Shown one piece after another: positions 1-42,933 of a DNA stretch of 64,000 nucleotides; within the stretch, counting starts at the first letter, position 1; each line of letters opens with the position of its first letter. A program made the translations under genes and the position numbers. The DNA is from an uncultured Dehalococcoidaceae bacterium (GTDB taxonomy: Bacteria > Chloroflexota > Dehalococcoidia > UBA2979), in NCBI GenBank assembly GCA_964479165.1, contig CAYZJO010000001.1, positions 829,218 through 893,217 of the forward strand, given 5' to 3'. Below the pieces are notes generated by a model. It saw only the letters and a list, made by a program, of their open reading frames with translations, had not been told where the DNA came from and did no database searches.

Positions 1-1252
1 GCGCGGCGCACTCGATCAGCTCGTCACGTGTCGTGGCGAAGAGCCGGCCGTGTGGCCTCAGGCCGAGCGCGTGGCCCGAGCGGCCGACGCGCTGTAGGAA
101 CGTCGCGATGCTGCCCGGCGAGCCGACCTGGCAGACGAGGTCGATGCTGCCGATGTCGATGCCCAGCTCGAGGGACGCCGTCGCCACGAGTGCGCGCAGC
201 TCGCCTTCCTTCAACTTCCGCTCGACGCGCAGACGGCGGTCGCGGGAGAGGCTGCCGTGGTGGCTCGCGACAGCCTCGGGACCGAGGCGCTGCGCGAGGT
301 GGTGCTGGATGCGCTCCGCCGTGCGGCGCGTGTTCACGAAGATCAGTGTCGTGCGGTGCGCGGTGACCAACTCGCCGAGGCGGTCGTACAGCTCGCCCCA
401 CTGCTCCGAGGACATCACCGCCTCGAGGTCCGTCGGCGGCACCTCGACCGCGAGTTCGAGGTCGCGCTGGTGGCCCAGGTCGACGATGGTGCAGTCGGGG
501 CGACCGTCCTCGCCGCTCTCTCGCGCGCCGACGAGGTAGCGCGCGATCTCCTCGATGGGCCGCACGGTCGCGGACAGGCCGATGCGCGTCGGTCGCGTCC
601 CGAGTCCACCGCGCTCGACATCGGTCACGACGTGGTCGAGGCGTGCGAGCGAGACCGCGAGGTGCGAACCGCGCCGGTCCCGCGCGAGGGCGTGCACCTC
701 GTCGACGATGACGGTGCGGACGTGTCGCAGCGTCTCGCGGCCGCGCTCGGCGGTCAGCAGCAGGTACAGCGACTCAGGCGTCGTGATCAGGATGTGCGGG
801 GGACGGCGCACCATCGAGGCGCGTTCGGAGGAGGGCGTGTCGCCGGTACGCACCGCCGTCGTGATCGCGGGGAGGTCGTAGCCGAGCTCCTCGGCAACAG
901 CGCGGATCTCCTCGAGCGGCGTCTCGAGGTTGCGCTGGATGTCGTTGCCGAGCGCTTTGAGCGGCGAGATGTAGAGGATGGCCGTCGCCGCCTCGAGTTC
1001 CCCGCGCTCGCCTCGATGCACGAGGTCGTCGATGCCGGCGAGGAAGGCGGTCAGCGTCTTGCCTGAGCCGGTCGGCGCGGAGATGAGGACGTTGCTGCCC
1101 GAGCGGATCTGCGGCCAGCCCTCGCGCTGGGCGTCGGTGGGCGCGCCGAAGCGCCGCTCGAACCAGGTCCGAACGGCCGGATGGAAGTTGCTCAGTGCGT
1201 CGTTGGCGTCGCTCACCCCGCCGCCCTCGTCGCCGACCTCATCCCCGAACAT
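1..1252 (-). CDS. lhr: Lhr-like DEAD/DEAH-box ATP-dependent helicase (N-terminal about 417 aa; gene continues beyond the window start)
   Basis: My reverse-complement translation from ATG at 1252 gives MFGDEVGD...[44 protein letters not shown] (Walker A) and later a DEVH-type motif, matching Lhr N-terminal architecture. The listed + ORF 257..1066 is its antisense shadow. Confidence 0.85.
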
Positions 1253-1372
1253 GCGTGCGAAGCACGAGTGTACGCCTCAGCCGAAGGCCTCTCAACCGGG
1301 TTTAGGGAGCTCCCCGAGTGCCGGCGACACGTCGAATCCCTAGCGTCGGAGAGGTTGGGCCGAGGAGTGCGC

Positions 1373-3058
1373 ATGGTCGCCGAACCCCGCTGGATCGACG
1401 AGTCCGAAGCCGAGCCCGCTGCCGCTCCTCGTTCGCGCCTCGATGTCGGGTCCCTCGCGGCTGTCGGGAGCGCGGTGGTCGCTGGTGCGCTCGTGCGCGT
1501 CCTCCCGGCGACCGGCGGTTTCCCCGTGAATGACGGCGGCATGTTCGCGGTCATGATCGAGGACCTGAAAGCGGCGGGCTTCGCACTCCCCGCGTACACG
1601 ACCTACAACGGTGCGGACATCCCCTTCGCCTACCCGCCCCTCGGCTTCTATCTCGGTGCGCTCGTCTCGATGTTGCCCGGCTTCGATGTGTTTCGCGCGC
1701 TCGTGTGGCTGCCGGTGCTTGTGTCGATCGCCACTCTGGCCGTGTTCTATCCGCTTGCACGCCGCTTCCTCGGCGGTCACGAGGCGGCGGTGCTGGCGAC
1801 GTTCGCGTTCGCCTTCATCCCGAGGGCGTACAACTGGGAGATCATGGGCGGCGGCCTGACACGTTCGCTCGGGATGTTCTTCGCCGTCCTGGCGCTCGCG
1901 TTCCTCTACGACGTCTACGTCCGCGGCTCGCGTCGCGCGATCGTGCCGGCCGCCTTGCTTGCCTCACTCGCGATCCTGAGTCACCTCGAGATGGGGTGGT
2001 TCACCGTGTACAGCGCAGCGCTCCTGCTGGCCTTCCACCGTGATGACTTCCGAGGCAAGGTCGCGGCAACGGCGGTCATCGGGGTCGTGGTAACGGCGAT
2101 TACCGCGCCGTGGTGGCTGGCGTTGTTCGCGATGCACGGTGTCGAGCCGTTCGAGGCGGCGCTGAAGACCGGCGACTGGTCGCCGCTTACCGTCTTCCGC
2201 CTACTGATTTTCGACTTCGGTGAGGCACCGCTGCTCGACTTCATCCCCGTGCTCGCAGTGCTCGGACTCTTCACCTGCGCCGCGCGGCGGTGGTGGCTCT
2301 TGCCCGCGTGGGTCGTGGCGATTTTCGTGCTCGATCCGCGCAAGGCGCCGACGCTCGCGAGTGTGCCGGTCGCGCTGCTCGCGGCGCTCGCGCTCGACGG
2401 GATCGTGCTGCCCGCGCTGCGAACGAGCGTCGCGAGGGTGGAGGCGGTGACGGAGGCTGGGCGGCGCCGCGCCGAGCGGGTGGCCGGCGCCTTCCTCGTG
2501 ATGGTGCTTGCGTACTCGATGTTCTCCGCTACGGCTGCGGCAACGACGCGCGAGGTCCTCGCGTGGTCCGCGACGACCCAACTGTCAGTCGAGGAGCGGG
2601 CCGCGATGGAGTGGGTGGCGACCGAGACTCCGGAGGACAGCCGCTTCGTCGTCCTCAGCGATGCCCTGCGCTGGGCAGAGGATCGCAGCGCCGAGTGGTT
2701 CCCCGCCATCGCGCAGCGCACGAGCGTGGCGACGCCGCAGGGGTACGAGTGGCTCTCTGTACCGTTCCCCGAAGTTGAGGAGCGTTACGAAGACCTCGCG
2801 CGCTGCGGCCGGCAAGCGGCCGGCTGTCTCGCGGAGTGGAGCGCTGCGTACGACGCTCCCTTCACGCACGTCTACGTAGCCGGTCCGAGTCTCCGAGGCC
2901 TGACAGACAACTCGACTTCGATCGAACAGCGCCTGTCCTCCTGCTGCGATGTCCTGGAGGCCTCGCTTGCACGGTCGCCCGACTATCGGCTGCTGCACGA
3001 TGCGGGCGACGTGCGGGTGTACGAGTACCGCGGATCTGCGCGGACGTCCTCGAGGTAG
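1373..3058 (+). CDS. polytopic membrane protein, possible GT-C-fold glycosyltransferase (PMT/ArnT-like topology)
   Basis: Start taken at in-frame ATG 1373 (MVAEPRW), because the track start at 1181 would overlap the helicase start. There are about 10-12 hydrophobic segments in the first 400 aa, followed by a roughly 200-aa soluble C-terminal domain. Codon usage is the high-GC type. Confidence 0.55.
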   Translation: MVAEPRWIDESEAEPAAAPRSRLDVGSLAAVGSAVVAGALVRVLPATGGFPVNDGGMFAVMIEDLKAAGFALPAYTTYNGADIPFAYPPLGFYLGALVSMLPGFDVFRALVWLPVLVSIATLAVFYPLARRFLGGHEAAVLATFAFAFIPRAYNWEIMGGGLTRSLGMFFAVLALAFLYDVYVRGSRRAIVPAALLASLAILSHLEMGWFTVYSAALLLAFHRDDFRGKVAATAVIGVVVTAITAPWWLALFAMHGVEPFEAALKTGDWSPLTVFRLLIFDFGEAPLLDFIPVLAVLGLFTCAARRWWLLPAWVVAIFVLDPRKAPTLASVPVALLAALALDGIVLPALRTSVARVEAVTEAGRRRAERVAGAFLVMVLAYSMFSATAAATTREVLAWSATTQLSVEERAAMEWVATETPEDSRFVVLSDALRWAEDRSAEWFPAIAQRTSVATPQGYEWLSVPFPEVEERYEDLARCGRQAAGCLAEWSAAYDAPFTHVYVAGPSLRGLTDNSTSIEQRLSSCCDVLEASLARSPDYRLLHDAGDVRVYEYRGSARTSSR

Positions 3059-3068
3059 CGGGGACGCG

Positions 3069-3398
3069 TCAGGCGGTCCGGCGCGAAGCCCGTGCGAGCT
3101 CGTCGAGTTCAACGATGCCGCCGAGCAGGTCCGCCACGGTCCAGCCCTGATTTACGGGGTGACGCAACTCTCGCTCGAGGTCGAGGTGGTACGCGTTGCG
3201 CCGGCCGATCCTCGTGGCCACGAGATATCCCCCAACGCGCAGGTCGCGGAGGATGCGTGCGGCCGCGCGTTCGCTGATTCCGGCGGCGTCCGCCACTTCG
3301 CGAATCGTCGAGTCCGGGTTTCGAGCCACGTGAATGAGCGCGGCGCCGTGGTTCGTTAGGAACGTCCAGCGGCTTCCATCCGTCGTTGATTCAGTCAT
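3069..3398 (-). CDS. winged-helix HTH transcriptional regulator (ArsR/MarR-like)
   Basis: Internal start MTESTTDGSRWTFLTNHGAALIHVARNPDSTIREVADAAGISERAAARILRDLRVGGYLVATRIGRRNAYHLD shows a helix-turn-helix plus wing pattern. It is divergent from the antiporter gene. Confidence 0.6.
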   Translation of the reverse strand: MTESTTDGSRWTFLTNHGAALIHVARNPDSTIREVADAAGISERAAARILRDLRVGGYLVATRIGRRNAYHLDLERELRHPVNQGWTVADLLGGIVELDELARASRRTA

Positions 3399-3539
3399 TA
3401 CCGTCCTCTCTGGGTGGTGGTGCCTGCACCTTACACAGAGGCGCAAGACCGTTGCCTCACCGGACATGATGCTCGTGGCACCTGAGCGCCCCCCGTGGTT
3501 GAATCGGCGAACGCCCCGTGTCACCGCTGAGAGGACCGC

Positions 3540-4631
3540 ATGGACGCGCTGACGACCGTACTGTTCGTGGTCGGGTTGGTCCTGCTCGTCGTCGGCGCGG
3601 AGTCACTGGTGCGGGGGGCGTCGCGCCTGGCCGCGACCATTGGCGTTTCGCCATTGGTCATCGGACTGACGGTCGTCGCCTTCGGTACAAGCGCGCCCGA
3701 GCTTGCCGTGAGCGTCTCGTCGTCGTTCTCCGGGAACGCAGACGTGGCGGTCGGGAACGTCGTCGGCAGCAACATCTTCAATGTGCTGTTCATCCTTGGC
3801 CTGGCCGCGATCGTGGCGCCGCTCGTCGTCTCGCAGCAGCTGGTCCGCCTCGACGTGCCGCTGATGATCGGGGTCTCGATCCTGCTGCTGTTGATGTCGC
3901 TGGACGACAACATCGGACGGATCGATGGGGCGATCCTGTTCGCCGGCATCCTTGCCTACACGTGGTTCGCCATCCAATCGAGCCGGCGGGAGAGCAAGCA
4001 AGTCGCCGAGGAGTACGAGGAGGAGTTCGGCGAGACCGACCGGTCCGGCGGTCGGGTGGTCTTCGACCTGTTGCGGGTCGCCGTTGGGCTCGTCCTGCTC
4101 GTTCTCGGTGCGCGCTGGTTCGTGGACGGCGCCGTTGAGATCGCGGAGGCGCTGGGCGTCTCCGACCTGGTCATCGGACTCACTATCGTCGCGGCCGGCA
4201 CATCGATGCCTGAACTGGCGACGTCGGTGGTCGCGAGCATCCGGGGCGAGCGCGACATCGCAGTCGGGAATGTGGTGGGAAGCAATATCTTCAACATCCT
4301 CGCTGTGCTCGGACTTTCCGGCCTCGTGGCTCCGGATGGAGTCGCAGTTGCCGAGAGCGCCCAGCGTGTCGACATCCCGGTGATGGTGGCGGTGGCCGTG
4401 GCGTGCCTGCCCATCTTCTTCACGGGCTACATCATCACGAGGTGGAACGGACTGCTGTTCTTGGCAATGTACGCCGGTTACGTGGCCTACCTCCTATTCG
4501 ATGCGACCGAGAGTGCGATGCTCGGGCCGTTCTCGGTCACGATGCTCGGCTTCGTGCTACCGATTACCGGCCTCACGCTCGTGCTTCTCGCGCTCCGCTA
4601 CCTGCGGCAGGAGCGGACGGCGCGCACCTGA
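3540..4631 (+). CDS. yrbG: Ca2+/Na+ antiporter, CaCA family (YrbG-like)
   Basis: Two alpha-repeat motifs (GTSAPEL...GNVVGSNIFNVL and GTSMPELATS...GNVVGSNIFNIL). About 10 TM segments with an acidic central loop. Confidence 0.9.
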   Translation: MDALTTVLFVVGLVLLVVGAESLVRGASRLAATIGVSPLVIGLTVVAFGTSAPELAVSVSSSFSGNADVAVGNVVGSNIFNVLFILGLAAIVAPLVVSQQLVRLDVPLMIGVSILLLLMSLDDNIGRIDGAILFAGILAYTWFAIQSSRRESKQVAEEYEEEFGETDRSGGRVVFDLLRVAVGLVLLVLGARWFVDGAVEIAEALGVSDLVIGLTIVAAGTSMPELATSVVASIRGERDIAVGNVVGSNIFNILAVLGLSGLVAPDGVAVAESAQRVDIPVMVAVAVACLPIFFTGYIITRWNGLLFLAMYAGYVAYLLFDATESAMLGPFSVTMLGFVLPITGLTLVLLALRYLRQERTART

Positions 4632-4654
4632 GGATCGGCTACCGGGGCGGCGCT

Positions 4655-4678
4655 GCATTGTCAGCGCGCGTACAATGC
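4655..4678. promoter_or_regulatory. candidate operator: inverted repeat GCATTGT-N10-ACAATGC with a GCGCGC core, overlapping a TACAAT -10-like hexamer
   Basis: Perfect 7-bp arms seen directly in the sequence, about 80 nt upstream of the GTG start at 4759. Confidence 0.3.
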
Positions 4679-4758
4679 CACAGGTAATACAAGCAGCCGC
4701 TCTCCTGCCGCGCTCCCGCTCGACGAGTGAGCGGCGTTGCACGAAGAGGAGGCGCCGA

Positions 4759-5448
4759 GTGCCTCGATACCTCGTTGTTGCGCACCAGACGGCCACCGGC
4801 AAGTCGCTGTTGGATCGACTGCGCGAACTTGCTGCGAAGGACCGCAGCGCCGAGTTCTCGCTCCTGGTCCCGGCGACCCCGGTGAACCACCTGTTGACCT
4901 GGGAGAAGGGCGAGTCGCGAGCGATCGCAGAGGAACGCGGCGAGGAGGCTCGCCGGATGCTCGGCGACGCCGGCCTGCGGGTGCGCGCCGTCCGCGTCGG
5001 TGACGCCTCGCCGATCCTCGCCATCGAGGATGAGCTGCGCCAGCACCCCGAGGACCACGACGTGATCGTCCTCTCGACGCTCGCGCAGGGGCGTTCGAGG
5101 TGGCTCGCTCAGGACGTCCACCAGCAGGCGCTCAAGCGCTTCGACCTGCCCGTCCTCAAGATCGTCGAGGGGGAGCCGTCGCCCTTCGACGACTTCGATC
5201 CCACGACGGCGAAACGTCGGGAGCGCTCGATGGCGCCTGACAGCGAGCGCGGCGCGGTCGCGCGATTGCTCGGGCGCGTCGGCGTGCGGCACATCGTCGC
5301 GGTAATGGCGCTGTATCTCCTGGGGGCGCTGGTGCTCGCGGTCGTCTACGACCAGAAGTTCCTGTTCAACGATGCGCTCGCGCTCGCCATCTTCGGGACG
5401 CTGATCCTCGGACTGCTGGCGATCGAGCGATGGGCGCCGTCTGCGTGA
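4759..5448 (+). CDS. hypothetical protein with a USP-like alpha/beta nucleotide-binding-type domain and a C-terminal TM helix
   Basis: GTG start 7 nt after GAGGAGG; the longer track ORF from 4501 would overlap the antiporter. RYLVVAHQTATGKSLLDRLRELAA...VIVLSTL alternating beta-alpha pattern; C-terminal hydrophobic stretch VAVMALYLLGALVLAVV. Confidence 0.5.
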   Translation: MPRYLVVAHQTATGKSLLDRLRELAAKDRSAEFSLLVPATPVNHLLTWEKGESRAIAEERGEEARRMLGDAGLRVRAVRVGDASPILAIEDELRQHPEDHDVIVLSTLAQGRSRWLAQDVHQQALKRFDLPVLKIVEGEPSPFDDFDPTTAKRRERSMAPDSERGAVARLLGRVGVRHIVAVMALYLLGALVLAVVYDQKFLFNDALALAIFGTLILGLLAIERWAPSA

Positions 5449-5543
5449 CCCGGGCCCCGACGAGGCCGCGCCGCGGTGTAGAATCTCCCGCGCACGAGTA
5501 CGCGCGTGGTCCCGTCGCGAGGGCGGCGGAGGAAGGACGTTAG

Positions 5544-6749
5544 ATGGTCGACTTCGCCGACTCCCCCGAACAGGCGGCGTTCCGCGCCGAGGTCCGTGAG
5601 TTCATCAAGGACCGACTCCCCGCGGAGCTGATCTACAAGCCGGAGGAAGTTCGGTCCTTCGACGAGGAGGACCCGGAGGAGAAGCGCGCTGCCATGAAGC
5701 AGTGGCGCGAGGCCCTCGTCGAGAAGGGCTGGATCGCGCCGATGTGGCCGAAGGACCTCGGCGGTGCGGCGCTCTCCACCATGGAGCAGTTCATCCTCAA
5801 CGAGGAGTTCACCGAGGCCCGCGCCCCGATGATGCGCGTCCCCGACGTGGGCAGCACGATCATGGTGCACGGCTCTGAGGAGCAGAAGAAGGAGTACCTC
5901 CCGAAGATGGTCACCGGCGAGTCCCGCTGGTGCCAGGGCTACTCCGAGCCGGGCTCGGGCTCCGACCTCGCCTCGCTCCAGACCCGCGCGGTCCGCGACG
6001 GTGACGACTTCGTCATCAACGGGCAGAAGATCTGGACCTCCGGCGCCCACCTCGCGAACATGATGTTCGCCCTCGTGCGCACCGACCCGGACGCCCCGAA
6101 GCACCGCGGCATCACCTACCTCCTGCTGCCGATGACGTCGCCGGGCATCAGCGTCCGCCCGTTGAAGCAGATGTCCGAGGCCTCCGGCTTCAACGAGGTC
6201 TTCTTCGAGGACGTGCGCGTTCCCGTCCGCAACGCGATCGGTGAGATCAACCGCGGCTGGTACGTCGGCGCGACCCACCTCGACTTCGAGCGCTCGTCCA
6301 TCGGCCAGTCGGTCGGCCAGAAGCAGACGCTCGACGCCCTGAAGAACTTCCTGGTCGACGAGGAGAAGGCGGGCAGCGGTCGCTCGACGATCAGCCGCAA
6401 TGCCGGCGCGCGCGCCGAGCTGGCGGACCGTTACACCGAGGCCGAGGTCGCGAAGAACATGTCGTACCGCGTCGTCTCGATGCAGGCGGCCGGGCAGATC
6501 CCGAACTACGAGGCCTCGATGGCCAAGATGTTCAACACGGAGCTGTCCCAGCGCATCGCTCGCACCGCGACGAAGACGCTCGGCCTCTACGGCGGCCTCT
6601 TCGACGAGAACGACACGACCTACACGCCGATGAAGCGCCGCTGGTCGCGCATGTACCTCTCGACGGTGTCGGCGACGATCGCCGGTGGCACCTCGGAGAT
6701 CCAGCGCAACGTCATCGCTACGCGCGGCCTGGGCCTGCCTCGCGGGTAG
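5544..6749 (+). CDS. acyl-CoA dehydrogenase family protein
   Basis: GGAGGAAGG RBS. Conserved ACAD blocks (GYSEPGSGSDLASLQTRA, DDFVINGQKIWTSGAH, GGTSEIQRNVIA). The antisense ORF 5346..6278 is rejected. Confidence 0.9.
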   Translation: MVDFADSPEQAAFRAEVREFIKDRLPAELIYKPEEVRSFDEEDPEEKRAAMKQWREALVEKGWIAPMWPKDLGGAALSTMEQFILNEEFTEARAPMMRVPDVGSTIMVHGSEEQKKEYLPKMVTGESRWCQGYSEPGSGSDLASLQTRAVRDGDDFVINGQKIWTSGAHLANMMFALVRTDPDAPKHRGITYLLLPMTSPGISVRPLKQMSEASGFNEVFFEDVRVPVRNAIGEINRGWYVGATHLDFERSSIGQSVGQKQTLDALKNFLVDEEKAGSGRSTISRNAGARAELADRYTEAEVAKNMSYRVVSMQAAGQIPNYEASMAKMFNTELSQRIARTATKTLGLYGGLFDENDTTYTPMKRRWSRMYLSTVSATIAGGTSEIQRNVIATRGLGLPRG

Positions 6750-6773
6750 CTGTCGACGCTCGGAGTGAGGACG

Positions 6774-6803
6774 GAGGCCCGGCGCGAGCCGGGCCTCTTC
6801 TTC
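6774..6803 (+). terminator. rho-independent terminator after the acyl-CoA dehydrogenase
   Basis: GAGGCCCGGC-gcga-GCCGGGCCTC is a perfect 10-bp stem, followed by TTCTTC. Confidence 0.7.
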
Positions 6804-6873
6804 AGAAGCCTTACGTTAGGTCAGTTGGACCCTCGCTGCGCTTGGGGTGGCGGTACGAACGATCACGCTTGAC

Positions 6874-6901
6874 TTGCAGGCGTGGGCGAGCCTGCTAGAG
6901 T
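6874..6901 (+). promoter_or_regulatory. candidate sigma70-like promoter for the low-GC island (TTGCAG-N16-TGcTAGAGT)
   Basis: Hexamers read directly; an extended -10 TG is present. It lies about 75 nt upstream of the 6976 start. Confidence 0.25.
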
Positions 6902-6975
6902 GCGCGCCACACGACTTGGAATGCGACACGGCTGTATTCGGCTACTTGCTCGATTAGCTGAACTCGGAGGCAGGG

Positions 6976-8130
6976 ATGCACCGACTAGGCCGTCCTCGAT
7001 TCGTCCTTTTCGCTGGGCTTATCTCTTCCGCGCTTCTCACGCTGATGTGGATCGGTCTGAACGAAACCCGCGCATCATCTGCGTTTCTAGAGAACGTCCT
7101 TATCTCGCAGACCGTCGAGATTCACCGGCCTCCACCTGACTTTCCGGAGCCAGCGGACCCTTACCACCTTGATCGTGAGGCTTTTCCCACAGCCGTTCGG
7201 GAGCACGACACGATCGAGGTGGGAAGAGGTGGGCTAGCGGTAAGGGTCCACGTTCGGGAACTCGACCTTCAAGGCAGGCTGCTGCAAGAGGGTCTGTACG
7301 ACGATGTCCTCGGGGTCGTGCGGAATCGCAACTACATTACGGCGATCGAGCTAGTCGACGACACGGAACCGCTTTCAGTCCTCGTCGAGGACGAGGAGTT
7401 GCTTAACCGTGATTTCGTTGAGTTGGGCCAACGAACTGTCGCTGGCCTGGCCGGCCGCGAGTTCGTCCGTGATCTTGGTTCGTCGTCTGGGGTGGTGCTC
7501 GAGAACAGGGTCGTCGTTTCCGCCGAGGGCCTCCTACTTCTCGATGAAACTGTGGAGATACGCGAAGGCGCCGAGGCGCTGATCGAGCGGAGGGAGGTCA
7601 CGAGTCTCGAGATTCGCGACTTGGACGACGCCGATGGCACTTTCTTGCTGTCTGGGCCGCCGTTGACTGTTGTTCATGATCTCCGCACGCACGGTCCCAC
7701 TGCGGCCACGGAGGTCGCAACTGTTGCGGCGCTGCCTTCCGGCCTCCTACAGATCGACGCGGCCACCCAGTCTCACAGCGCGGGCGCGTTGAGCGAGGCG
7801 GATTTGCCGTCCGCGAGCGGTGTCGGACTTGCTGCGCTGCTGAACGGTGCCTACTCCTCGCTGGTGCAGCTCAATACTGGACATGCTCTGGTCATGCAGA
7901 GTCGGTCTCCGTCGTTCGACGAGCAAGTACGCCGGTCGATAGCCGACTGGGTGAACTCACGCGTCGAGACCGTGACTCTCGCGGATGGTCGAGAACTGGA
8001 CGCTTGGATAGCGGACGGGCTGGATGGCAGTTCGCTAGCCTTCCTCCGGGTCGGCGACTTGCTTGCCGTCGTCAGGTCTTACGATGCAGATATCCACGCC
8101 GTCCTCGAGTCGGCTCTTATTGCGCGGTAG
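6976..8130 (+). CDS. hypothetical protein, N-terminal signal anchor plus acidic extracytoplasmic domain (island gene A)
   Basis: GGAGG RBS. MHRLGRPRFVLFAGLISSALLTLMWIG hydrophobic anchor. The rest is D/E-rich with no motif I recognise. Lower-GC codon usage. Confidence 0.55.
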   Translation: MHRLGRPRFVLFAGLISSALLTLMWIGLNETRASSAFLENVLISQTVEIHRPPPDFPEPADPYHLDREAFPTAVREHDTIEVGRGGLAVRVHVRELDLQGRLLQEGLYDDVLGVVRNRNYITAIELVDDTEPLSVLVEDEELLNRDFVELGQRTVAGLAGREFVRDLGSSSGVVLENRVVVSAEGLLLLDETVEIREGAEALIERREVTSLEIRDLDDADGTFLLSGPPLTVVHDLRTHGPTAATEVATVAALPSGLLQIDAATQSHSAGALSEADLPSASGVGLAALLNGAYSSLVQLNTGHALVMQSRSPSFDEQVRRSIADWVNSRVETVTLADGRELDAWIADGLDGSSLAFLRVGDLLAVVRSYDADIHAVLESALIAR

Positions 8131-8157
8131 TCGCTCCCGAATCACCAAGGAGTCGTC

Positions 8158-8628
8158 ATGATTCAACGGTGGTCCACTTCCCTTCTTGTTGTGATCGTCG
8201 CAGCCTTCGCTCTGAGTACGGCGAATCCGGCTGGAGCTTGGATTCAAACTTGGACTCATACAGGCACCTGGGGCATAGGTACGCTCCAGTGGACGCACGG
8301 CTGGGACTGGTATTCGACCTGCTGCACCAAGGGCGGTGGTCGTTCTCACGGCACTCCATCCGGGTCGGCTACGTTCGACCAGATCTCCGTTACCAGCATC
8401 CAGAGCTGGACGAGTACCAACGGGGGAGCCTCGTGGACTCTCCGGGCTTCACACGGTGGGGCGACGTGGTTCAACTCCAACGACACAGGCTTGTACTGGA
8501 CGGGCGGCCATGGGCTCCCACCAATGGCACCCTCCCCTAAATACCGAGTCAATGCGACTCACACGTGGAAAGACCCATCGACGGTTTCATTCACGTCGTA
8601 TCACTATGAGGGTGAAGTCCCGCCATAA
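8158..8628 (+). CDS. small secreted W/T/G/H-rich protein (island gene B), possibly bacteriocin-like or lectin-like
   Basis: AAGGAG RBS 7 nt upstream. Signal peptide MIQRWSTSLLVVIVAAFALSTANPAGA. The mature ~130-aa product has many Trp and a CC pair. Confidence 0.6.
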   Translation: MIQRWSTSLLVVIVAAFALSTANPAGAWIQTWTHTGTWGIGTLQWTHGWDWYSTCCTKGGGRSHGTPSGSATFDQISVTSIQSWTSTNGGASWTLRASHGGATWFNSNDTGLYWTGGHGLPPMAPSPKYRVNATHTWKDPSTVSFTSYHYEGEVPP

Positions 8629-8684
8629 CTCGCAAAGTCGCCGCCAATCTCGCTGCGTATCTTCGAAATGCACTGACTGCGCTA

Positions 8685-9500
8685 TTGGTGGTGGTCATAG
8701 CATCTGCGTGTTCTGCTCGGGGCGACGAACTAGACGTAGCGTCGGTGCAGGAAGTCCTCGATGCCGACGTTCTTGCAGTGGTTGGACACAGCGGCGAGGT
8801 TCGGTACGCGTTGTTCCTGGGCACTGTCGGCGGATCCGGCCCCGCCGACGTTGTGGCTTTCGATGCGCGCGACCCGTCCTCGCAGTGCTTGCTGCAGTGG
8901 GAGACCGAGGTCCCCTTCGAAGGAAGGAGCGCGTACTTCCGCGATCCGTGTCTGGGTTCCGTCTATGCCTCGGATGGAGCCCGATTGTTTGGCCCCTCTG
9001 CTAGCGATCTGAAGGAGGTCGCCACGTCGATCTCTGATGGGCGCGTACGAGTTCTAGAAGGCGATTTGCCCCCCACCCCACCGGACGCCATGTCGCATAC
9101 GCCATCCGTTGCCGTTACTCTGCTCATGGAAGCAAGGCGTGCTCAGATCACCGAGATCGTCTTCGATCTTCTCAGCGACGACCTCCTAGAGCATGCAATC
9201 GCTGGGTCGTCGGACGCGCGGCTTTTTCCCCGGAGCCGCTACTGCTGGTTCGACTATCAACTCGATGTGCTCGAGTCCCGGGACGACGCAATGTCGTTCG
9301 TGGTCCGCGTCTATCAGCACCATCTCGAAGGGGATATCGTTGGCGGCGTCCCGACGTCTTGGATCGAGGAAATCGACGTCGAGAAAGCCTCTGATTCCTG
9401 GGTCGTCACGGGGCTCCGTGTTCAATCTACTCCACGCCCCGAGACGGACGTGCGACACGGTCCTTCGCTCTCCGCGTGCGTCGCGCTCGTAGGAGAATAG
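8685..9500 (+). CDS. hypothetical protein (island gene C)
   Basis: First possible start is TTG; an upstream in-frame stop lies at 8613. N-terminus VVVIASAC is a weak lipobox. No recognised domain. Confidence 0.45.
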   Translation: MVVVIASACSARGDELDVASVQEVLDADVLAVVGHSGEVRYALFLGTVGGSGPADVVAFDARDPSSQCLLQWETEVPFEGRSAYFRDPCLGSVYASDGARLFGPSASDLKEVATSISDGRVRVLEGDLPPTPPDAMSHTPSVAVTLLMEARRAQITEIVFDLLSDDLLEHAIAGSSDARLFPRSRYCWFDYQLDVLESRDDAMSFVVRVYQHHLEGDIVGGVPTSWIEEIDVEKASDSWVVTGLRVQSTPRPETDVRHGPSLSACVALVGE

Positions 9501-9556
9501 GCGCTCTCGCGAGACAGCTATTCGATCTCCGATGCGCTGAACCGTCTCAGTGCCCC

Positions 9557-10246
9557 TCACTCGTAGAGCCTCAGGTGGCTCCCCCGCGTCACCCCGAGCT
9601 GCTCCGCGAGCCACTCCACCACCAGCGCACGCACCTCCTCCCGCACCTGGCGCAGGCTGTGGGTGGCGCCCTCGAGGAGCTCGAGGCGGCGCGGGTCGCC
9701 GGCGCGTTCGTAGAGGAGGCGTGAGCAATCGGCGGGGAGGCGCTGGTCCGCGAGTCCGTGGATGAACAGCGTCGGGATGGGCGCGAGCAGCCCGACGCGC
9801 TGCGCCCCCGCGGTCTGCGTCGCGAGCGTGGCGACGGCCGCCACGCGTGGCGCGCGGCCCTTCGTCTGCACAGCTGCCTCGATCATGACCGCGCCGCCGA
9901 AGGAGTGGCCGAGGAGTCCGACGCGCTGCACGCCCTCGGATGCGAGGTACTCGAGGCCCGCGCGGACGTCGTGGACGCCGGCCTCGACGATGCCGGGAAA
10001 CCGGTGGTCGCGGAAGTCGAGGCGCAGCGTGCCGATGCCGATGCCGGCGAGGTCTTCGGCAAGGTCGGGGTACAGCGCAGACGGACCGTCGAGCCCGCCG
10101 TCACCGCCTCCGACCATGATCACGGCGGCGCTGCCAGCGGCTGACTTCGAGGGCATGTGGAGCGCGCACGAGATCGGCCCGCGCTCTGACGGTACTTCGA
10201 TGAGGCGTCCCGAGTTTCCTGCCGCGGGGGTCAGCGACTCGTTCAT
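9557..10246 (-). CDS. alpha/beta hydrolase (dienelactone-hydrolase-like)
   Basis: Internal ATG (MNESLTP) forms an ATGA overlap with the stop of the upstream MpaB-like gene. Nucleophile elbow GHSFGG. Confidence 0.75.
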   Translation of the reverse strand: MNESLTPAAGNSGRLIEVPSERGPISCALHMPSKSAAGSAAVIMVGGGDGGLDGPSALYPDLAEDLAGIGIGTLRLDFRDHRFPGIVEAGVHDVRAGLEYLASEGVQRVGLLGHSFGGAVMIEAAVQTKGRAPRVAAVATLATQTAGAQRVGLLAPIPTLFIHGLADQRLPADCSRLLYERAGDPRRLELLEGATHSLRQVREEVRALVVEWLAEQLGVTRGSHLRLYE

Positions 10247-11040
10247 CGGTTGGGGGAGATTATCACTTGCGAAATCGGCGCGACTACCTCGCCGTGTGGC
10301 CTCGGAGGCATGACCAGCGCCGGTGGGCGCCGCAGCGGGACCGGCAGTCGCGGCACCGCCGCGCGCGAGGCCGCCTCGAGTGCCGCCAGCATGCGCGCGT
10401 CGATGGCGGTCCACCGGAGGCCGTACGCCTCGCGGAGACGAGGCGGCAGCAGTCCGGCGGTGAACCAGGCTGCGCTCTGCAGCCCCGGGCCGAGCCAGAG
10501 GTCCGGGGCGAAGACGGCGCGAGCGAGCCGCCTCGAGACCGCACCCACCTCGAGGGTCGCGACCATGCCCGCGACATAAGCATCGAAGGCGTCGAGGTCG
10601 GGCGGGAGTGCGGAGGCGGGCAGCCCGATTAGCTCCACCATGTCCGCGATCTCGAGGTAGTAGCGCTCGGCCTCGGCATGTGAGAGGGGGCGCACGAAGC
10701 GTCGATACGCCTGCAGCGAACTGTCGACGAGCGTGGCGTGCACCCAGAGCAGCAGGGCAGGGTCGTTCGCCGTGTAGCCGGGGCCGGAGACGTAGTCGTG
10801 AGCATGTCGGATGCCGGCCGCCGCACTACGTGCCTGCCGCTCGTCGCCGAAGACGATGGCGTACGTCGGGCGCAGCGTGCGCAGCAGCCGCCCGAGGCGG
10901 TCACCCTCGAAGCCGCTGTGCTGGTCGACGCCGGCGGCCACGAGGGGATGCGCCAGCTGCATCAGCAGCGCGCGCCCGCCTCCGAGCAACAGCGCGGACT
11001 CGCCGTTGATGCGGCGCACTATCGAGTCGTCGCGGAACAT
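10243..11040 (-). CDS. oxygenase MpaB family / DUF2236 protein
   Basis: Start at MFRDDSIVRRINGESALLLGGGRALLMQLAHP, typical of the MpaB/DUF2236 N-terminus. The longer track ORF to 11130 has no support. Confidence 0.65.
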   Translation of the reverse strand: MFRDDSIVRRINGESALLLGGGRALLMQLAHPLVAAGVDQHSGFEGDRLGRLLRTLRPTYAIVFGDERQARSAAAGIRHAHDYVSGPGYTANDPALLLWVHATLVDSSLQAYRRFVRPLSHAEAERYYLEIADMVELIGLPASALPPDLDAFDAYVAGMVATLEVGAVSRRLARAVFAPDLWLGPGLQSAAWFTAGLLPPRLREAYGLRWTAIDARMLAALEAASRAAVPRLPVPLRRPPALVMPPRPHGEVVAPISQVIISPNR

Positions 11041-11259
11041 CGAGGACGATCGTAGCGGGACCCTCACCCTGGCCCTCTCCCCCGAGGGGAGGGGACCGGA
11101 CCCGGAGTGGGGACGTGCCGACGGACACACGTGGTTCTGCTCCCGGGGCGGCGGCTGCTGGCCTTCGAGCCTTGCGTCGCTGGCGGATAATCGGCTGGCG
11201 GCGGCATCACGGACGCAGTGTCCACCGCAGTCCGCCGCGCCTCAGGGAGGGGTGACGCG

Positions 11260-12138
11260 ATGCCGACTGCGCCAATCAACGGCACGGACATCTACTACGA
11301 GACGCACGGCAGCGGGTTCCCGCTGGTCTTCGTGCACGGCGGCTTCGGAGGGCTGGGCACGGGGCAGGGCGGCAACGTCCCGGCTTGGGTCGACAAGTTC
11401 GCCCAGCACTTCCAGGTGATCCTCTACGACCGCCGCTCGTCCGGCCGCTCGGGCTTCCCCGAGACGCAGCACACGATGGTGCAGTTCGCCGACGACATCC
11501 GCGAGCTGCTGCGACACCTCGGGCACGACAAGGCGCACGTCTGGGGGACGAGCGCCGGCGGCCAGATCACGATCGCGTTCGGCCTGAAGCACCCCGACGC
11601 GGCCGCGAGTCTCGTCGTCGTCGACTCGGCGCCGTGGCTCTCGCGGGATCCGGACCTCCTCGGCAAGCTCAAGGAGCGCATCGGCATCATGGAGTCGCAG
11701 GGCGTCGAGGCGGCCTACGAGGCACGGCGCGAGGGTGGCACGGTTGGCCTCAACCTCTTCGCCGCGGCGCGCCCGGCGCAGTCCGAGGAAGAGGAGAAGC
11801 AGCGCGCCGAGCGTCGCGCGGCGATCCAGGCGCAGTTGGCACAGGTCCCGCGCGAGGAGCGCATCGCGAAGTACGGCAGCGAGCTGCGCACGTACTCCGC
11901 CTATGCCGACTGGGACGCCACCGACTGGTTCAAGAACCTCGCGATGCCGGTCCTCGTGGTCTACGGCACGGGCGACACCGTCTTCCCGAACGCCGGTTGG
12001 GATGAACTCGTCGAGGGCATGTCCAACGTGACGTACCGTGCCATCGAGGGCGCCGAGCACGGCGTCACCGGTGAGCACCCCGAGGTCCTCGACGAGATCC
12101 TCGAGTTCGCGCGGGAGCACACGCCCGTCACGGCGTAG
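11260..12138 (+). CDS. alpha/beta hydrolase fold protein
   Basis: GGGAGGGG RBS. HGGFGG oxyanion region and GTSAGG nucleophile elbow. Confidence 0.8.
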   Translation: MPTAPINGTDIYYETHGSGFPLVFVHGGFGGLGTGQGGNVPAWVDKFAQHFQVILYDRRSSGRSGFPETQHTMVQFADDIRELLRHLGHDKAHVWGTSAGGQITIAFGLKHPDAAASLVVVDSAPWLSRDPDLLGKLKERIGIMESQGVEAAYEARREGGTVGLNLFAAARPAQSEEEEKQRAERRAAIQAQLAQVPREERIAKYGSELRTYSAYADWDATDWFKNLAMPVLVVYGTGDTVFPNAGWDELVEGMSNVTYRAIEGAEHGVTGEHPEVLDEILEFAREHTPVTA

Positions 12139-12164
12139 GGGCTGCACCGCGACTTGAATGCGAG

Positions 12165-13466
12165 TCAACGCCGGGCCGGCGGCTCGAGGCGGGTGTCACC
12201 ACTCGTCGCGACCGCCGGCTCAGTCGTTCCCGGGGCGAGCCGCCCAGCCGCGAGCCCGGCGAGCGCTGTGGTGATCGGAACCGCCGCCACGATGCCGATG
12301 CTCCCGACGAGCGTCCGGACAACCTCCGTCGCGATCACGTCTCGGTTGACCAGCGTCCCGAGTGGCTCGGCGCCCGACGCGAGGATGATGAGCAGCGGCA
12401 ACGACGCGCCGGCGTAGGCCAGGACGAGCGTGTTCACCGTCGAGGCGATGTGATCACGGCCGACGCGCATGCCTCGGTGGTACAGCTCGCGCGTGCCGAG
12501 CAGCGGGTTCGCGCGCCGCAATTCGAAGACGGACGAGGCCTGCGCCATCGTGACGTCGTCGAGCACCCCCAGCGCGCCGATGATGATGCCGCCCAGCAGC
12601 AGCCCGCGGGCATCGATCGTCCCGGTCGACAGGATCTGGAGCGTGGCCGCCTCGTCGGTCGCGATACCCGTCAGTTTGGCGAAGCCGATGCCGAACCCCG
12701 CGAGCAGCGCCGTCAACAGCAGTGCGGCGGTCGTCCCGGCGAGAGCCACGACCGTCTTCCATCCGACACCGTGTGCGATGAAGAGCGTTGTCGACATGAT
12801 CACCATCGAACCCGTGATCGCGATCATCAATGGGTCGAATCCGGCGAGGATCGCGGGCACGATGTACCGCACGATGACGAGGAATGACGCGCCCAGTCCG
12901 ACGAGCGACGCCAGTCCGTGCCAGCGGCCGATCGCGAGCACCGCACCAGCGAACGCGAGCGTGAGCACCCAGAGCGGGAAGCGCCGCACGTGGTCGGAGA
13001 TGAAGTAACGCGGCCCCTCCGGCGTCTCCGAGATCGAGAGCAGCACCAGGTCGCCGGGTTGCGGGTCGATCCCGACGAGGTCGTCGAGGCGGCGCGTCAC
13101 GTCGATCACCGTGCGCTCCCCACCGTCGAGGGCGACCTCGATGCGCTCGTTCACGACCGTTCGGCCTGCAGACTCGAAGCGCTCGACCTCCTCGATCGAG
13201 ATCACGGTGGCCTCGGTGGTGGGCAGCACCTCGAAGCCGGCGTCCGGCAGGTCGAAGGCGCCGGTTGCCGGGAGGACGACCGTCACCACGAGAAGTAGCG
13301 CGGCGATCGCGGCGTAGGCGGCCGCCCGTGCGAGGCCGCGTGAGCTCGCGATCGCTGTCAGGGGGGATGTCACTCGTGGCAGTCTCGCGGGTGGCGCGGT
13401 CCCGCGCCAGTTCGCCTGAAGCCGCCTCCGCGTTAGGATGAGGCGCAGCGGGGGCGGCTCATGCAA
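12165..13466 (-). CDS. YibE/F family membrane protein
   Basis: Periplasmic N-domain followed by about 8 TM helices with the characteristic GxxxG-rich C-terminal half. Start is uncertain; a GTG at about 13373 is possible. Confidence 0.75.
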   Translation of the reverse strand: MHEPPPLRLILTRRRLQANWRGTAPPARLPRVTSPLTAIASSRGLARAAAYAAIAALLLVVTVVLPATGAFDLPDAGFEVLPTTEATVISIEEVERFESAGRTVVNERIEVALDGGERTVIDVTRRLDDLVGIDPQPGDLVLLSISETPEGPRYFISDHVRRFPLWVLTLAFAGAVLAIGRWHGLASLVGLGASFLVIVRYIVPAILAGFDPLMIAITGSMVIMSTTLFIAHGVGWKTVVALAGTTAALLLTALLAGFGIGFAKLTGIATDEAATLQILSTGTIDARGLLLGGIIIGALGVLDDVTMAQASSVFELRRANPLLGTRELYHRGMRVGRDHIASTVNTLVLAYAGASLPLLIILASGAEPLGTLVNRDVIATEVVRTLVGSIGIVAAVPITTALAGLAAGRLAPGTTEPAVATSGDTRLEPPARR

Positions 13467-14510
13467 CTCAGCATCCTCGATCAGTCACCGATCCGCGCGG
13501 GGGGCACGGCGCGCGAGGCCGTCCTCGCGACGATCGAACTCGCAAAGGCGGCGGATCGCCTCGGGTATACGCGCTACTGGCTCGCGGAGCACCACAACAG
13601 CAGCACCCTCGCGAGCGCCAGCCCCGAGATCCTGATCGCACAGATCGCTGCAGTCACCTCGCGCATCCGCGTCGGGTCCGGCGGGGTGATGCTCACGCAC
13701 TACGCCGCGCTGAAAGTCGCCGAGACCTTCCGCATGCTCGAGACGCTGCACCCGGGACGCATCGACCTCGGGCTCGGACGCGCTCCGGGCAGCGACGGCC
13801 TGACGGCTGCCGCGCTGCGCAACGGCCCCGGCGCTCTGCCGCTTGAGGCGTACCCGCAGCAGGTCGCGGACACTGTTGGCTACCTCGTGGGCGACCTGCC
13901 CGAGGGGCACCCGTTCTCGGCGGTGCGCGCGTCGCCTCGAGGACCCGGCGTGCCGGAGACGTGGCTCCTGGGCTCATCGTGGGACAGCGCTCACTTTGCT
14001 GCGGAGCTGGGCCTCGCGTTCTCGTTCGCGCAGTTCATCAGCCCGGACGGCGGGCCACGGGTGGTGGCGGACTACCGTAAGCGCTTCAAGCCTTCGCCGT
14101 GGCTCAGCGAGCCGCGCGTCACCGTCGGGGTGTCCGCGCTCGTCGCGGAAACCGACGAGGAGGCGCACCGCATCGGCATGAGCCGCCATCTGATGCGATT
14201 GCGGCGTCAGCAGGGCCGGTCCAGTCCCGGCGTACCCACCATCGAGGACGCGCTCAATACCGCGTACTCCGAGCCCGAGCTCGACTACATCAGGTACCAG
14301 CAGAGCCTCTCGCTGGAGGGGAGCCCCGAACGCGTCCGCGAGGGCCTGCTTGCGATCGCCGCGGAGTACGAGACCGACGAGTTGATCGTCGTGACCATCA
14401 CTCACGACTACGCGGACCGCCTCAGGTCTTACGAACTGCTCGCGCAAGCGTTCGACCTGCCGGTCGACGCGGAGAGCGCCGAGATCGCGGGGCAACCCGC
14501 CGCTCCTTAG
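13461..14510 (+). CDS. LLM-class flavin-dependent oxidoreductase (luciferase-like monooxygenase family)
   Basis: MQLSILDQSP...YTRYWLAEHHNS N-terminal signature of F420/FMN-dependent LLM enzymes. Confidence 0.85.
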   Translation: MQLSILDQSPIRAGGTAREAVLATIELAKAADRLGYTRYWLAEHHNSSTLASASPEILIAQIAAVTSRIRVGSGGVMLTHYAALKVAETFRMLETLHPGRIDLGLGRAPGSDGLTAAALRNGPGALPLEAYPQQVADTVGYLVGDLPEGHPFSAVRASPRGPGVPETWLLGSSWDSAHFAAELGLAFSFAQFISPDGGPRVVADYRKRFKPSPWLSEPRVTVGVSALVAETDEEAHRIGMSRHLMRLRRQQGRSSPGVPTIEDALNTAYSEPELDYIRYQQSLSLEGSPERVREGLLAIAAEYETDELIVVTITHDYADRLRSYELLAQAFDLPVDAESAEIAGQPAAP

Positions 14511-14629
14511 GATGACCTTCGGAAGCCCGTTGCATCCGCAACGTTAGGGCAATCCCCGATACGCGATCAGGTCGATCCGGGCCACGCTGTTCCCCTCAGT
14601 GAGATGATCTCAGTAAGAGGAGCAGCGTC

Positions 14630-14815
14630 ATGGCTGCCCAACGACTCTACGAACCGCCCCAGCGTCCGCGCCCGACCGTAGCCGAACGTTTGTCGGGGCA
14701 ACTTATCGTCCTGGAGCCGCGGGGACGCCTTCTTCGAGGCACGGCGATCGCCGTCGTCCTGTCCGTAGCGGGGTTCTGGACGCCGCTCGCGCTCCTCGCG
14801 GCGCGCCTCAGCTAG
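14630..14815 (+). CDS. small hypothetical protein (61 aa) with a C-terminal hydrophobic segment
   Basis: Strong RBS AAGAGGAG 8 nt upstream of ATG. Convergent with otsA, overlapping its 3' end by 4 nt. Confidence 0.3.
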   Translation: MAAQRLYEPPQRPRPTVAERLSGQLIVLEPRGRLLRGTAIAVVLSVAGFWTPLALLAARLS

Positions 14816-16143
14816 CCGCTCGTTCGCTCCGCCGCGGCTGACGCGAGCGCTTCGAGGTAGCGTCGCCGCCACTCGTGCACCGTGTTCGCCTCGACCCCTG
14901 AACTCAGCGCCGCCCAGCGCTGCCGGCGCTCCTCAAGCGGCATCGCGAGCGCCTGCTCCATCGCTGCCTCGAGTACCTCGACGTCACCAGCAGGGACGAT
15001 CAGCGCCTCACGCATCCGCTCGGCAGCGCCACAACCATCGGAGAGGATGAGCACGCCGGGCCGCTCAGGGCGCTGGAGAGCGACGTACTCCTTCGCGACG
15101 AGGTTCATCCCGTCCGAGAACGAGGTCACGAGGCAGACCTCCGCGTCGCGGAGGCCGGCGGCGACGGTCTCCAGTGGCAGCGTGGTCAGCTCGAAGCGCA
15201 CCGGCTCGCCGTCGTGCGACTCATTTGCGTGGTCGACGAGGCGCTCGATGGCAGCGCGCTCGGCGGCATACTCCGCGATGCCGGTCCGCGACGGGGCCGC
15301 CCACTGGACGAGGACTGCCCCAACGCGTGCGTCTGCCGAGCGCGTCAGCAACCGCTCGAACGCCTCGACCCGCTGGCCGATGCCCTTGCTGTAATCCAGG
15401 CGGTCCGCACCGAGGAGCACCTGCCTCCCGCGCCGGTACTCCTCGAATGGATCGCCCGGGTGACGCGCCGCCGAGGCACGTACGCGCTCGGGGTCGATGC
15501 CGATGGGGTGCGCCTCGATCCGTGCGCCGGGCGCGAGGCGTCGAAGGGTCGCGGCGTCGCGCTCGGTTTGGACTCCCACGAGGTTGTATGCGGCGAGGGA
15601 CTCCGCGATGGCCTCGGCGCCGGGGACGAGACGCCAGCCCTCCTCGTTTACCGGGATGTGGTGGAAGTAGCCGAGCGCGCCCTCCCATCCCAGGCGCCGC
15701 AACTCCGAGCCGAGTGGGAGCAGGTGGTAGTCGTGCACCCAGATGACGTCGCCGTCTTCGCAGAGCTCCGCCACCTCGCGCGCATAACGCCGATTCACCT
15801 CGAGCCAGGTGTCGTGGTAGCCGGGCTCGATGTCCGCGCGGTCGAGGAAGCCGTGCAGCAGTGGCCAGAGGACGCTGTTGCTGAAGCCCTCGTAGAAGCC
15901 GCGGATCTCCTCGGGGGAGAGGTCGATCGTCGCGTACTCGACGTTGTGCTCGGTGCGCCGGACCGGAGTGGACTGGGCAGTGCCTTCGCGGCCGCTCCAG
16001 CCAAACCAGAGCCCGCCCGCCTGCTCGAGCGCCGGAAGCACGGCGGCAACCAGGCCACCGGCCGGCGGGGGCGTGTTGGGATCGGGCGGTGGAGGCACCC
16101 GGTTCGAGATGACGACGAGACGACGGCTCGCCGCGTCAGTCAC
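14812..16143 (-). CDS. otsA: alpha,alpha-trehalose-phosphate synthase (GT20)
   Basis: GTG start (VTDAASRRLVVISNRVPP) forms a GTGACTGA overlap with the otsB stop. GT20 blocks VLWPLLHGF and DYHLLPL. The track ORF extension to 16581 lies inside otsB and is rejected. Confidence 0.9.
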   Translation of the reverse strand: MTDAASRRLVVISNRVPPPPDPNTPPPAGGLVAAVLPALEQAGGLWFGWSGREGTAQSTPVRRTEHNVEYATIDLSPEEIRGFYEGFSNSVLWPLLHGFLDRADIEPGYHDTWLEVNRRYAREVAELCEDGDVIWVHDYHLLPLGSELRRLGWEGALGYFHHIPVNEEGWRLVPGAEAIAESLAAYNLVGVQTERDAATLRRLAPGARIEAHPIGIDPERVRASAARHPGDPFEEYRRGRQVLLGADRLDYSKGIGQRVEAFERLLTRSADARVGAVLVQWAAPSRTGIAEYAAERAAIERLVDHANESHDGEPVRFELTTLPLETVAAGLRDAEVCLVTSFSDGMNLVAKEYVALQRPERPGVLILSDGCGAAERMREALIVPAGDVEVLEAAMEQALAMPLEERRQRWAALSSGVEANTVHEWRRRYLEALASAAAERTSG

Positions 16144-16945: not shown

Positions 16946-16954
16946 CGTGACCCG

Positions 16955-18268: not shown

Positions 18269-18447
18269 GGGTGGCCCCCTCGTCGCCGGACTCGCTACGT
18301 CGCGTTCACTCGCGACTCACATTAGCAATCGCCGTCAAAGCACGCGCGAGATTGCGCGTGAGGTGCGCGGCCTACGCCGCCGCCGTGACCGGTCGAGGAC
18401 ACCGCCGCTAACCTGTGACAGAGCAATGAGGAGCGGATGGAGCGAGC

Positions 18448-40818: not shown

Positions 40819-42933
<2,115 letters not shown>

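Follow-up and report, generated by a model that had tools for sequence, protein, structure and literature searches.

To our knowledge, every characterised half-barrel of the LolA/RseB class has a hydrophobic cavity in which acyl chains or some other amphipathic ligand is bound. The N-terminal domains of MucB and RseB are lipid-binding half-barrels that resemble LolA, LolB and LppX, in a class that binds acyl chains or lipid A, and both proteins bind the extracytoplasmic part of an anti-sigma factor and release it upon lipid binding (PMC7400510). PetC3, which represents a second envelope fold, is a Rieske lipoprotein found at the periplasmic face of the inner membrane (PMC12341915). Here we analyse a low-GC (guanine plus cytosine) island of three genes, which we call A, B and C, in a stretch of 64,000 nucleotides (hereafter, the window) from an uncultured Dehalococcoidaceae bacterium (assembly GCA_964479165.1, contig CAYZJO010000001.1, positions 829,218 to 893,217 of the forward strand). 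Genes A and B form a pair that has been acquired horizontally, and repeatedly. The product of A may share the LolA/RseB-like fold, and that of C includes a derivative of the Rieske fold. The features of the island and its left edge are the following:

6769..6797, + strand: terminator-like hairpin 3' of the acyl-CoA dehydrogenase (ACAD) gene, from RNA folding; left island junction.
6798..9530, + strand: low-GC island with three genes; lowest-GC 2.7-kb stretch; absent from the syntenic interval of four relatives (L011, L012, L013 and L014).
6976..8130, + strand: gene A, 384 amino acids (aa); open reading frame (ORF) with a GGAGG ribosome-binding site (RBS).
8158..8628, + strand: gene B, 156 aa; ORF with an AAGGAG RBS.
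8625..9500, + strand: gene C, 291 aa if read from ATA 8625; frame translation, the frame being open from 8616.

The composition of the island is foreign. The block from 6804 to 9530 has a GC content of 0.604, compared with a window mean of 0.679 (z = -4.0), and this value is the minimum among all 2.7-kb windows of the 64 kb. When read in 400-bp windows, GC falls from ~0.67-0.70 to 0.58-0.63 between ~6800 and ~9500, and reaches 0.70-0.75 beyond. The deficit lies mainly at third codon positions: GC at these positions (GC3) is 0.68, 0.64 and 0.66 for A, B and C, respectively, against 0.85-0.96 for six flanking genes. All three ORFs lie on the + strand, do not overlap as called and tile the block. 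An initial annotation of this DNA, made from the letters alone, had described a low-GC stretch that follows the terminator of the ACAD gene and shows no integrase, tRNA or direct repeats. On each of these points our analysis agrees: windowed GC and GC3 both deviate from the flanks; the ACAD hairpin is real (dG -34.7 kcal/mol, z -3.4, by RNA folding); a scan of the window found no tRNA genes around the island, and an Rfam scan found no RNAs; the island is flanked by no meaningful direct or inverted repeats; and no integrase, transposase or insertion sequence was found at it. A promoter scan returned zero promoters, and the sole match of the terminator scan was an intragenic chance site. Elsewhere in the window, patches with a GC of 0.61-0.63 occur at 33801-34400, 38201-39800, 41801-42300, 48701-49400 and 58101-58900, all shorter than the island and none as low.

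The genes found at this site differ between relatives. The best matches of the ACAD gene are in metagenome-assembled genomes of Dehalococcoidia/Chloroflexota, with 81% for L011, the closest relative. In blastn, L011 aligns with window positions 5543-6797, which hold the ACAD gene and the terminator hairpin, and then diverges. Beyond the junction it carries a high-GC + strand ORF that is missing from the window, and L012 has the same ORF after its own ACAD gene (71% aa identity to the L011 ORF). L013 and L014 retain ACAD as well as the alpha/beta hydrolase that lies downstream on the minus strand, with other genes of normal GC in between: a DUF3052-like protein, a small conserved protein, a methyltransferase and a nucleotidyltransferase, homologs of which are found nowhere in the window. 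These alignments put the left junction at 6797/6798 and mark the interval as a variable locus, with A-B-C as an occupant specific to the window's lineage. The initial annotation had suggested looking in close relatives for an empty site. The block is indeed missing from the same site in L011, L012, L013 and L014, and none of the four offers an exact empty site; because they carry other genes in the interval, A-B-C is a replacement at a variable locus and not a simple insertion. Ten independent contigs derived from the Sequence Read Archive (SRA; Logan) carry the locus and are 100% identical to the window save for one single-nucleotide polymorphism; this population is clonal. The organism is present in the SRA runs SRR12234142, SRR16642463-67, SRR23375768-71, SRR23814899 and SRR34423825.

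Word-indexed homolog searches with A, B and C returned self matches only. For A and B, whose homologs share only ~32% identity, this result was misleading. An exhaustive HMMER search of 1.84 billion representative proteins, standing for ~15 billion, was made with A only, B and C being searched by less sensitive methods, and it recovered four relatives of A:

P0010: 385 aa, 33% identity, E 8e-31.
P0011: 380 aa, 34% identity, E 2e-27.
P0012: 438 aa, E 5e-5.
P0009: a 110-aa fragment, 86% identical.

The description of the three genes as ORFans in the initial annotation thus holds for word-indexed searches and fails for A in the exhaustive one. An N-terminal hydrophobic segment is present in all the full-length relatives of A. 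Metagenome contigs scanned with the A and B families contained no relatives. The genomic context could be read for three A homologs, and in all three (L091, L092 and L093) the gene is directly followed, on the same strand, by a gene for a secreted protein of 146-154 aa:

L091 (47-kb contig; ENA ERZ26222911, ctg1005599): A', then a 154-aa secreted protein, then a 194-aa protein anchored by a transmembrane (TM) segment.
L092: A', then a B-like gene split by a frameshift in a run of A nucleotides.
L093: A'', then a 151-aa secreted protein, then a lipoprotein gene.

B matches the L091 protein with E 3e-11 and the L092 protein with E 3e-13, these two match each other with E 1e-17, and all three share the motifs G[FW]D[WF], S-[CT]-N-[NG]-G-A-[TS]-W and PKY[RK]. 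The frameshift in the L092 gene lies at 1520-1545, in the run GCAAAAGGG, and probably stems from an assembly error, the contig being of low coverage. The third protein of L091 matches the Rieske-like segment of C (FRDPCLGSVYASDGARLFGP in C versus FRSPGSSALFDGSGTWVFGP in L091, E 1e-3). Because C-like genes stand beside A-B in only two of the four loci (the window and L091), the conserved mobile core consists of A-B and not of three genes. The three-gene module of the initial annotation is thereby narrowed: A and B occur together in L091, in L092 and, by position, in L093, while the full A-B-C arrangement recurs in L091.

The GC and GC3 of A-B lie below those of the flanks in each of the four loci, the window (above) and the following three:

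L091: module GC 0.53-0.58 (GC3 0.55-0.63); flanks GC3 0.79-0.90.
L092: A' GC 0.61, B' GC 0.53; flanks GC 0.68.
L093: A'' GC 0.56, B'' GC 0.44 (GC3 0.60 and 0.37); flanks GC 0.66-0.68 (GC3 0.81-0.86).

Since this deviation is found in all four, A-B constitutes a rare, repeatedly transferred module. The third gene of L093, which encodes the lipoprotein, falls outside the island because its composition is host-like. The A''-B'' pair stands there between two lipoprotein genes of host composition (67-1161 and 3497-4102), which encode a META-domain protein and a lipoprotein with a long acidic low-complexity linker. In L091, the module block is free of the extreme strand-specific skew of its host. 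The L091 host DNA (1-18696) has a GC skew of -0.3 to -0.4 overall, with a magnitude of 0.63-0.82 at third codon positions, and this skew tracks the DNA strand and not gene orientation, + strand genes being C3-rich and - strand genes G3-rich; because the ORFs are intact, it looks biological and not like a sequencing error.

These sequences reveal no vehicle for the module. No conserved upstream DNA or edge motif is common to the four loci. A tblastn search with A against 50,697 phage and 72,556 plasmid records gave zero matches, as did IMG/VR scans with the A and B families and PHROGs and PADLOC searches with A, B and C, and a viral structure library yielded no credible match. Small genomic islands without mobility genes resemble this one in their deviant composition, in a sharp junction by a terminator and in cargo that differs among relatives at the same site. 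The present case differs in that the same two-gene core is found in four unrelated contexts without a common edge sequence.

Gene A has a GGAGG motif 5 nt before its ATG (8 nt from motif start to ATG). Its product begins with a basic 8-residue cytoplasmic tail (MHRLGRPR) followed by one hydrophobic segment (residues 9-28; Kyte-Doolittle hydropathy 2.1) that acts as a predicted TM anchor, in line with the signal anchor proposed in the initial annotation. The protein contains zero Lys and zero Cys in its 384 residues, has a net charge of -29 and an acidic ectodomain, and shares the motifs P[DE]PxDPYH and GxL[LI]QEGL with its full-length relatives. A single-sequence PDB search with A found nothing meaningful. 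An AlphaFold2 (AF2) model built from a five-sequence alignment (mean predicted local distance difference test (pLDDT) 51, predicted template modelling score (pTM) 0.31) starts with the TM helix, after which residues 41-196 form a beta domain (~11 antiparallel strands), 198-292 a disordered linker (~95 residues) and 292-384 a C-terminal bb-a-bbbb-a domain with a pLDDT of ~60-77. When this model was compared with the PDB by Foldseek, the top eight matches were RseB chains (E 1e-4 to 9e-4, prob 1.0) that span both domains, followed by MucB, LolB, VioE, ependymin-related proteins (EPDR1), LprG and LolA3, all of the LolA-like fold class. A LolA/RseB-like fold is the best-supported but unproven assignment for the ectodomain of A. 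The protein would be an unusual member of this class. Whereas RseB, MucB, LolA, LolB, LppX and LprG are soluble or lipidated, A is anchored by an N-terminal TM helix. Unlike in RseB and MucB, its two domains are split by the predicted ~95-residue disordered linker (in the pLDDT-51 model), and no sigma-E-type or anti-sigma genes flank A in the window, L091, L092 or L093. The host is also different from that of LolA-class systems, being a member of the Chloroflexota without LPS (lipopolysaccharide) pathway context. A 1.6-kb Logan contig codes for a 409-aa variant of A (P0005), which starts in another frame and joins the frame of A between IICV and LENVL. It fits a 1-nt deletion in a TTT run (window ~7075-7085, A codons ~34-37), which may be a sequencing error or a rare frameshift allele.

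Gene B is preceded by AAGGAG, 5 nt before its ATG. The good RBSs that had been noted for all three genes are thus borne out for A and B; in C, no canonical start is preceded by an RBS. B carries a Sec signal peptide that ends in LLVVIVAAFALSTANPAGA before a Trp, with predicted cleavage between ANPAGA and this W. The N-terminus, which reads MIQRWSTSLLVVIVAAFALSTANPAGA up to the same W, fits the n-h-c rule of signal peptidase I (small residues at -3/-1), as judged from the sequence. The cleavable signal peptide that had been ascribed to B is accordingly of the classical n-h-c type, and the B homologs in L091 and L092 have equivalent N-termini. Mature B would comprise ~130 aa (~13 kDa), rich in Thr, Gly, Ser and Trp (12 Trp), with an Asp-box-like hairpin (S-T-N-G-G-A-S-W) in addition to G[FW]D[WF] and PKY[RK]. 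Its two Cys are adjacent (55-56), whereas the two conserved Cys of its homologs are separated and at other positions. B has no family match in Pfam or NCBIfam and no meaningful match in a single-sequence PDB search. With a B-family profile, the sole resemblance in the PDB was to the Asp-box-like hairpin of sialidases (E 0.45-2), which we judged not significant.

Gene C poses a problem of initiation. Read in frame, it encodes a lipoprotein-type signal peptide, (I)TRKVAANLAAYLRNALTALLVVVIASA followed by C, which fits the lipobox rule [LVI][ASTVI][GAS]C, and the product is probably a lipoprotein. The canonical starts TTG 8685, GTG 8688, GTG 8691 and GTG 8745 all cut into or past this signal peptide, upstream of which the only start-like codon is ATA 8625, overlapping the TAA stop of B as ATAA. 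Gene callers disagree accordingly, with versions of 251, 269, 270 and 271 aa. The ATAA looks like a former ATGA stop/start overlap, in which a G to A change would have kept the stop of B (TGA to TAA) and lost the ATG of C. C could be translated by non-canonical initiation, or its start codon could have been lost recently. We considered a B-C fusion by frameshifting and rejected it: a TGA lies at 8613-8615 in the frame of C, no slippery heptamer occurs from there to the stop of B, and the lipoprotein signal peptide would be buried in the product.

C comprises a PetC3-like Rieske-fold domain (~residues 40-145) and an extra C-terminal domain of ~140 aa. It matches NCBIfam PetC with E 6e-4, below the family cutoff, and does not match Rieske_2 in Pfam. 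A single-sequence PDB search retrieved 8hn2 (E 0.026), and a two-member C profile retrieved the PetC3 structure 5cxm (E 8.6e-5) and 8hn2 (E 3.3e-3), Rieske proteins making up eight of the ten listed matches, including the top six; the Rieske alignment covers the C-terminal half of the domain only. A single-sequence AF2 model of C had a pLDDT of 36 and was not used in fold searches. In alignments to 8hn2, 5cxm and 1rfs, the four [2Fe-2S] ligand positions are occupied in C by Asp, Ser, Asp and Leu. The CxHxGC/CxCH cluster-binding boxes are absent, box I (CxHxGC) reading D-P-S-S-Q-C and box II (CPCH) reading D-P-C-L, while both disulfide Cys of the Rieske boxes are retained. In the C-like protein of L091, box II reads S-P-G-S and both disulfide Cys are lost too. 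Since all four ligands are replaced, C can hold no cluster and perform no redox function. Judging from these alignments, the N-terminal domain of C is derived from a PetC3-like Rieske lipoprotein that has lost its cluster. Like the cyanobacterial PetC3 proteins (5cxm, 8hn2), C combines a small Rieske-fold domain with a lipoprotein-type signal and a predicted place at the outer face of the cytoplasmic membrane. It differs from them by its ~140-aa C-terminal extension, by the lack of a twin-arginine translocation (Tat) motif and of [2Fe-2S] ligands, and by its non-canonical or lost start. NirD provides a precedent for a cluster-less Rieske-like domain whose fold is kept for structure or binding. 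That protein works in the cytoplasm with nitrite reductase, whereas C is predicted to be extracytoplasmic and is linked to the A-B pair.

The envelope targeting put forward in the initial annotation extends to all three products, with an anchor in A, a Sec signal in B and a lipoprotein-type signal in C. Its statement that the genes hold no recognisable domain is correct for Pfam, NCBIfam, PHROGs and PADLOC, save for the weak NCBIfam PetC match of C, and gives way in profile and fold comparisons, where the model of A resembles RseB and C is Rieske-like. We tentatively favour a reading in which A, B and, where present, C form an extracytoplasmic, membrane-tethered assembly on the outer face of the cytoplasmic membrane, encoded by a horizontally acquired operon, and we hold this to be somewhat short of an even chance. 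In the high-GC Chloroflexota host (Dehalococcoidia-like), the island products would act at this outer face. A would be tethered there by its anchor and expose an RseB/MucB-like ectodomain made of a LolA-type open beta half-barrel and a small alpha/beta domain. Its cavity may bind a lipidic or amphipathic molecule, or B itself. B, a Trp-rich and presumably beta protein whose gene directly follows that of A, would be its secreted extracytoplasmic partner or cargo. C would be a membrane-attached accessory, serving as a structural or binding subunit without electron transfer. By analogy with the lipid control of RseB-RseA and MucB-MucA, ligand occupancy could govern the association of A with B (and C). 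The foreign composition, the targeting signals, the conserved linkage of A and B, their recurrent island status and the Rieske homology of C with its lost ligands are observed directly, and we infer ligand binding by A, the physical interaction of A, B and C and the physiological role of the assembly.

Several observations weigh against such an assembly. For A and its three full-length relatives, no Pfam or NCBIfam family (LolA, MucB_RseB, LolA_like and DUF4367 included) matches at E <= 1, and a profile of the A family has zero matches among PDB sequences. Confidence in the A model is low to moderate (pLDDT 51, pTM 0.31). The second protein of L093 is like B in position, size and secretion only (E about 1). 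C has no canonical start and may be poorly translated or decaying, and the population data are clonal.

A different role for the same proteins would be that of a competition locus, where B is a secreted toxin or bacteriocin, and tethered A (and C) shield the producing cell from it or assist its maturation. A small, very rare, patchy and repeatedly transferred island is typical of such loci; B is small, secreted and fast-evolving, with a non-homologous secreted protein in its position in L093; and its partners are membrane-tethered or lipoproteins, like many immunity proteins. However, searches of Pfam, NCBIfam and the PDB (by sequence and by profile) showed no signature of a toxin, lytic or pore-forming protein in B, the locus has no exporter or processing protease of its own, and PADLOC and PHROGs returned zero matches. 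A is moreover far larger than typical immunity proteins and is the most conserved component, which would be unusual for an immunity gene that tracks a toxin. We consider this role rather unlikely. The initial annotation had offered a bacteriocin with immunity partners or, alternatively, a surface adhesion module; neither finds positive evidence here, and B carries no toxin, lectin or adhesin signature in the same searches.

The island could also be cargo of a phage or plasmid (a moron), such as a module for surface modification or superinfection exclusion that a mobile element left in place. Its compact low-GC composition, its lack of a housekeeping function and its presence in four different contexts would agree with this origin. 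But PHROGs gave no matches, nor did phage and plasmid records searched with A or IMG/VR scanned with the A and B families, the viral structure library held no credible match, and no phage genes, att repeats or tRNA lie nearby. We consider such an origin improbable.

That the acquired DNA has no function, and that its ORFs are decaying remnants or arose by chance, is a view that draws on the missing canonical start before the signal peptide of C and on the frameshifted A in one assembly (P0005). The ORFs, signal sequences and motifs of A and B are nevertheless intact across relatives that are 30-34% identical, a 384-codon ORF is very unlikely to arise by chance in DNA of 60% GC, and A and B have good RBS-ATG arrangements; the locus is the same across more than ten independent sequencing runs. 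We regard decay or chance as quite improbable. Finally, the RseB and MucB matches across both domains of the A model could point to an envelope-stress sensor that binds an anti-sigma factor and releases it upon lipid binding, but this is very improbable given that no sigma or anti-sigma gene stands beside A in any of the four loci, that its 8-residue cytoplasmic tail means A is not itself an anti-sigma factor, that a mobile sensor without its regulator is implausible, and that A has no match to Pfam MucB_RseB.

Returning to the tethered A-B(-C) assembly, a bolder extension is that A-B is an undescribed, self-contained mobile envelope cassette, in which a LolA/RseB-like anchored receptor is paired with a secreted Trp-rich partner and at times with a cluster-less Rieske lipoprotein. 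Such a cassette would spread among high-GC Chloroflexota without a recognisable mobility gene and confer a new envelope trait, for example a secreted antagonist with a tethered antidote, or lipid or lipoprotein handling in a monoderm envelope. We offer this as a speculation that is probably wrong in at least some respect, and its chances as a whole are slim. If the assembly model favoured above is right, the island would represent an uncurated trio of protein families, with about four instances in the collections searched and no entry in Pfam, NCBIfam, PHROGs or PADLOC. It would also be a new combination of two known envelope folds, an anchored LolA/RseB-type scaffold in Chloroflexota and a PetC3-type Rieske lipoprotein minus its cluster. 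A-B is also a clean example of a tiny cassette that stands out by composition in four different contexts and shows no transfer machinery, and A, B and C, being small and extracytoplasmic, are tractable for studies of mutual and lipid binding. The significance is moderate: the hosts have not been cultured or have received little study, and metagenomes contain many rare families of this sort.

All ten Logan contigs that carry the island start either within the ACAD gene, at window position 6191, 6243 or 6245, or at 6781, a pattern that suggests a branch point of the assembly graph, probably caused by k-mers that are common to ACAD paralogs near the FNEVFFED motif.

A second difference from L011 lies upstream, at window positions 1187-5542: L011 aligns to 1-1186 and to 5543-6797 and has ~1 kb where the window has 4.4 kb. 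Three features fall within this stretch:

1181-3058: PTPS_related membrane protein.
3540-4631: Na+/Ca2+ exchanger-like gene.
4690-5448: hypothetical protein.

The GC content of this 4.4-kb stretch is somewhat lower, and its AT skew is strongly negative at 1400-2600.

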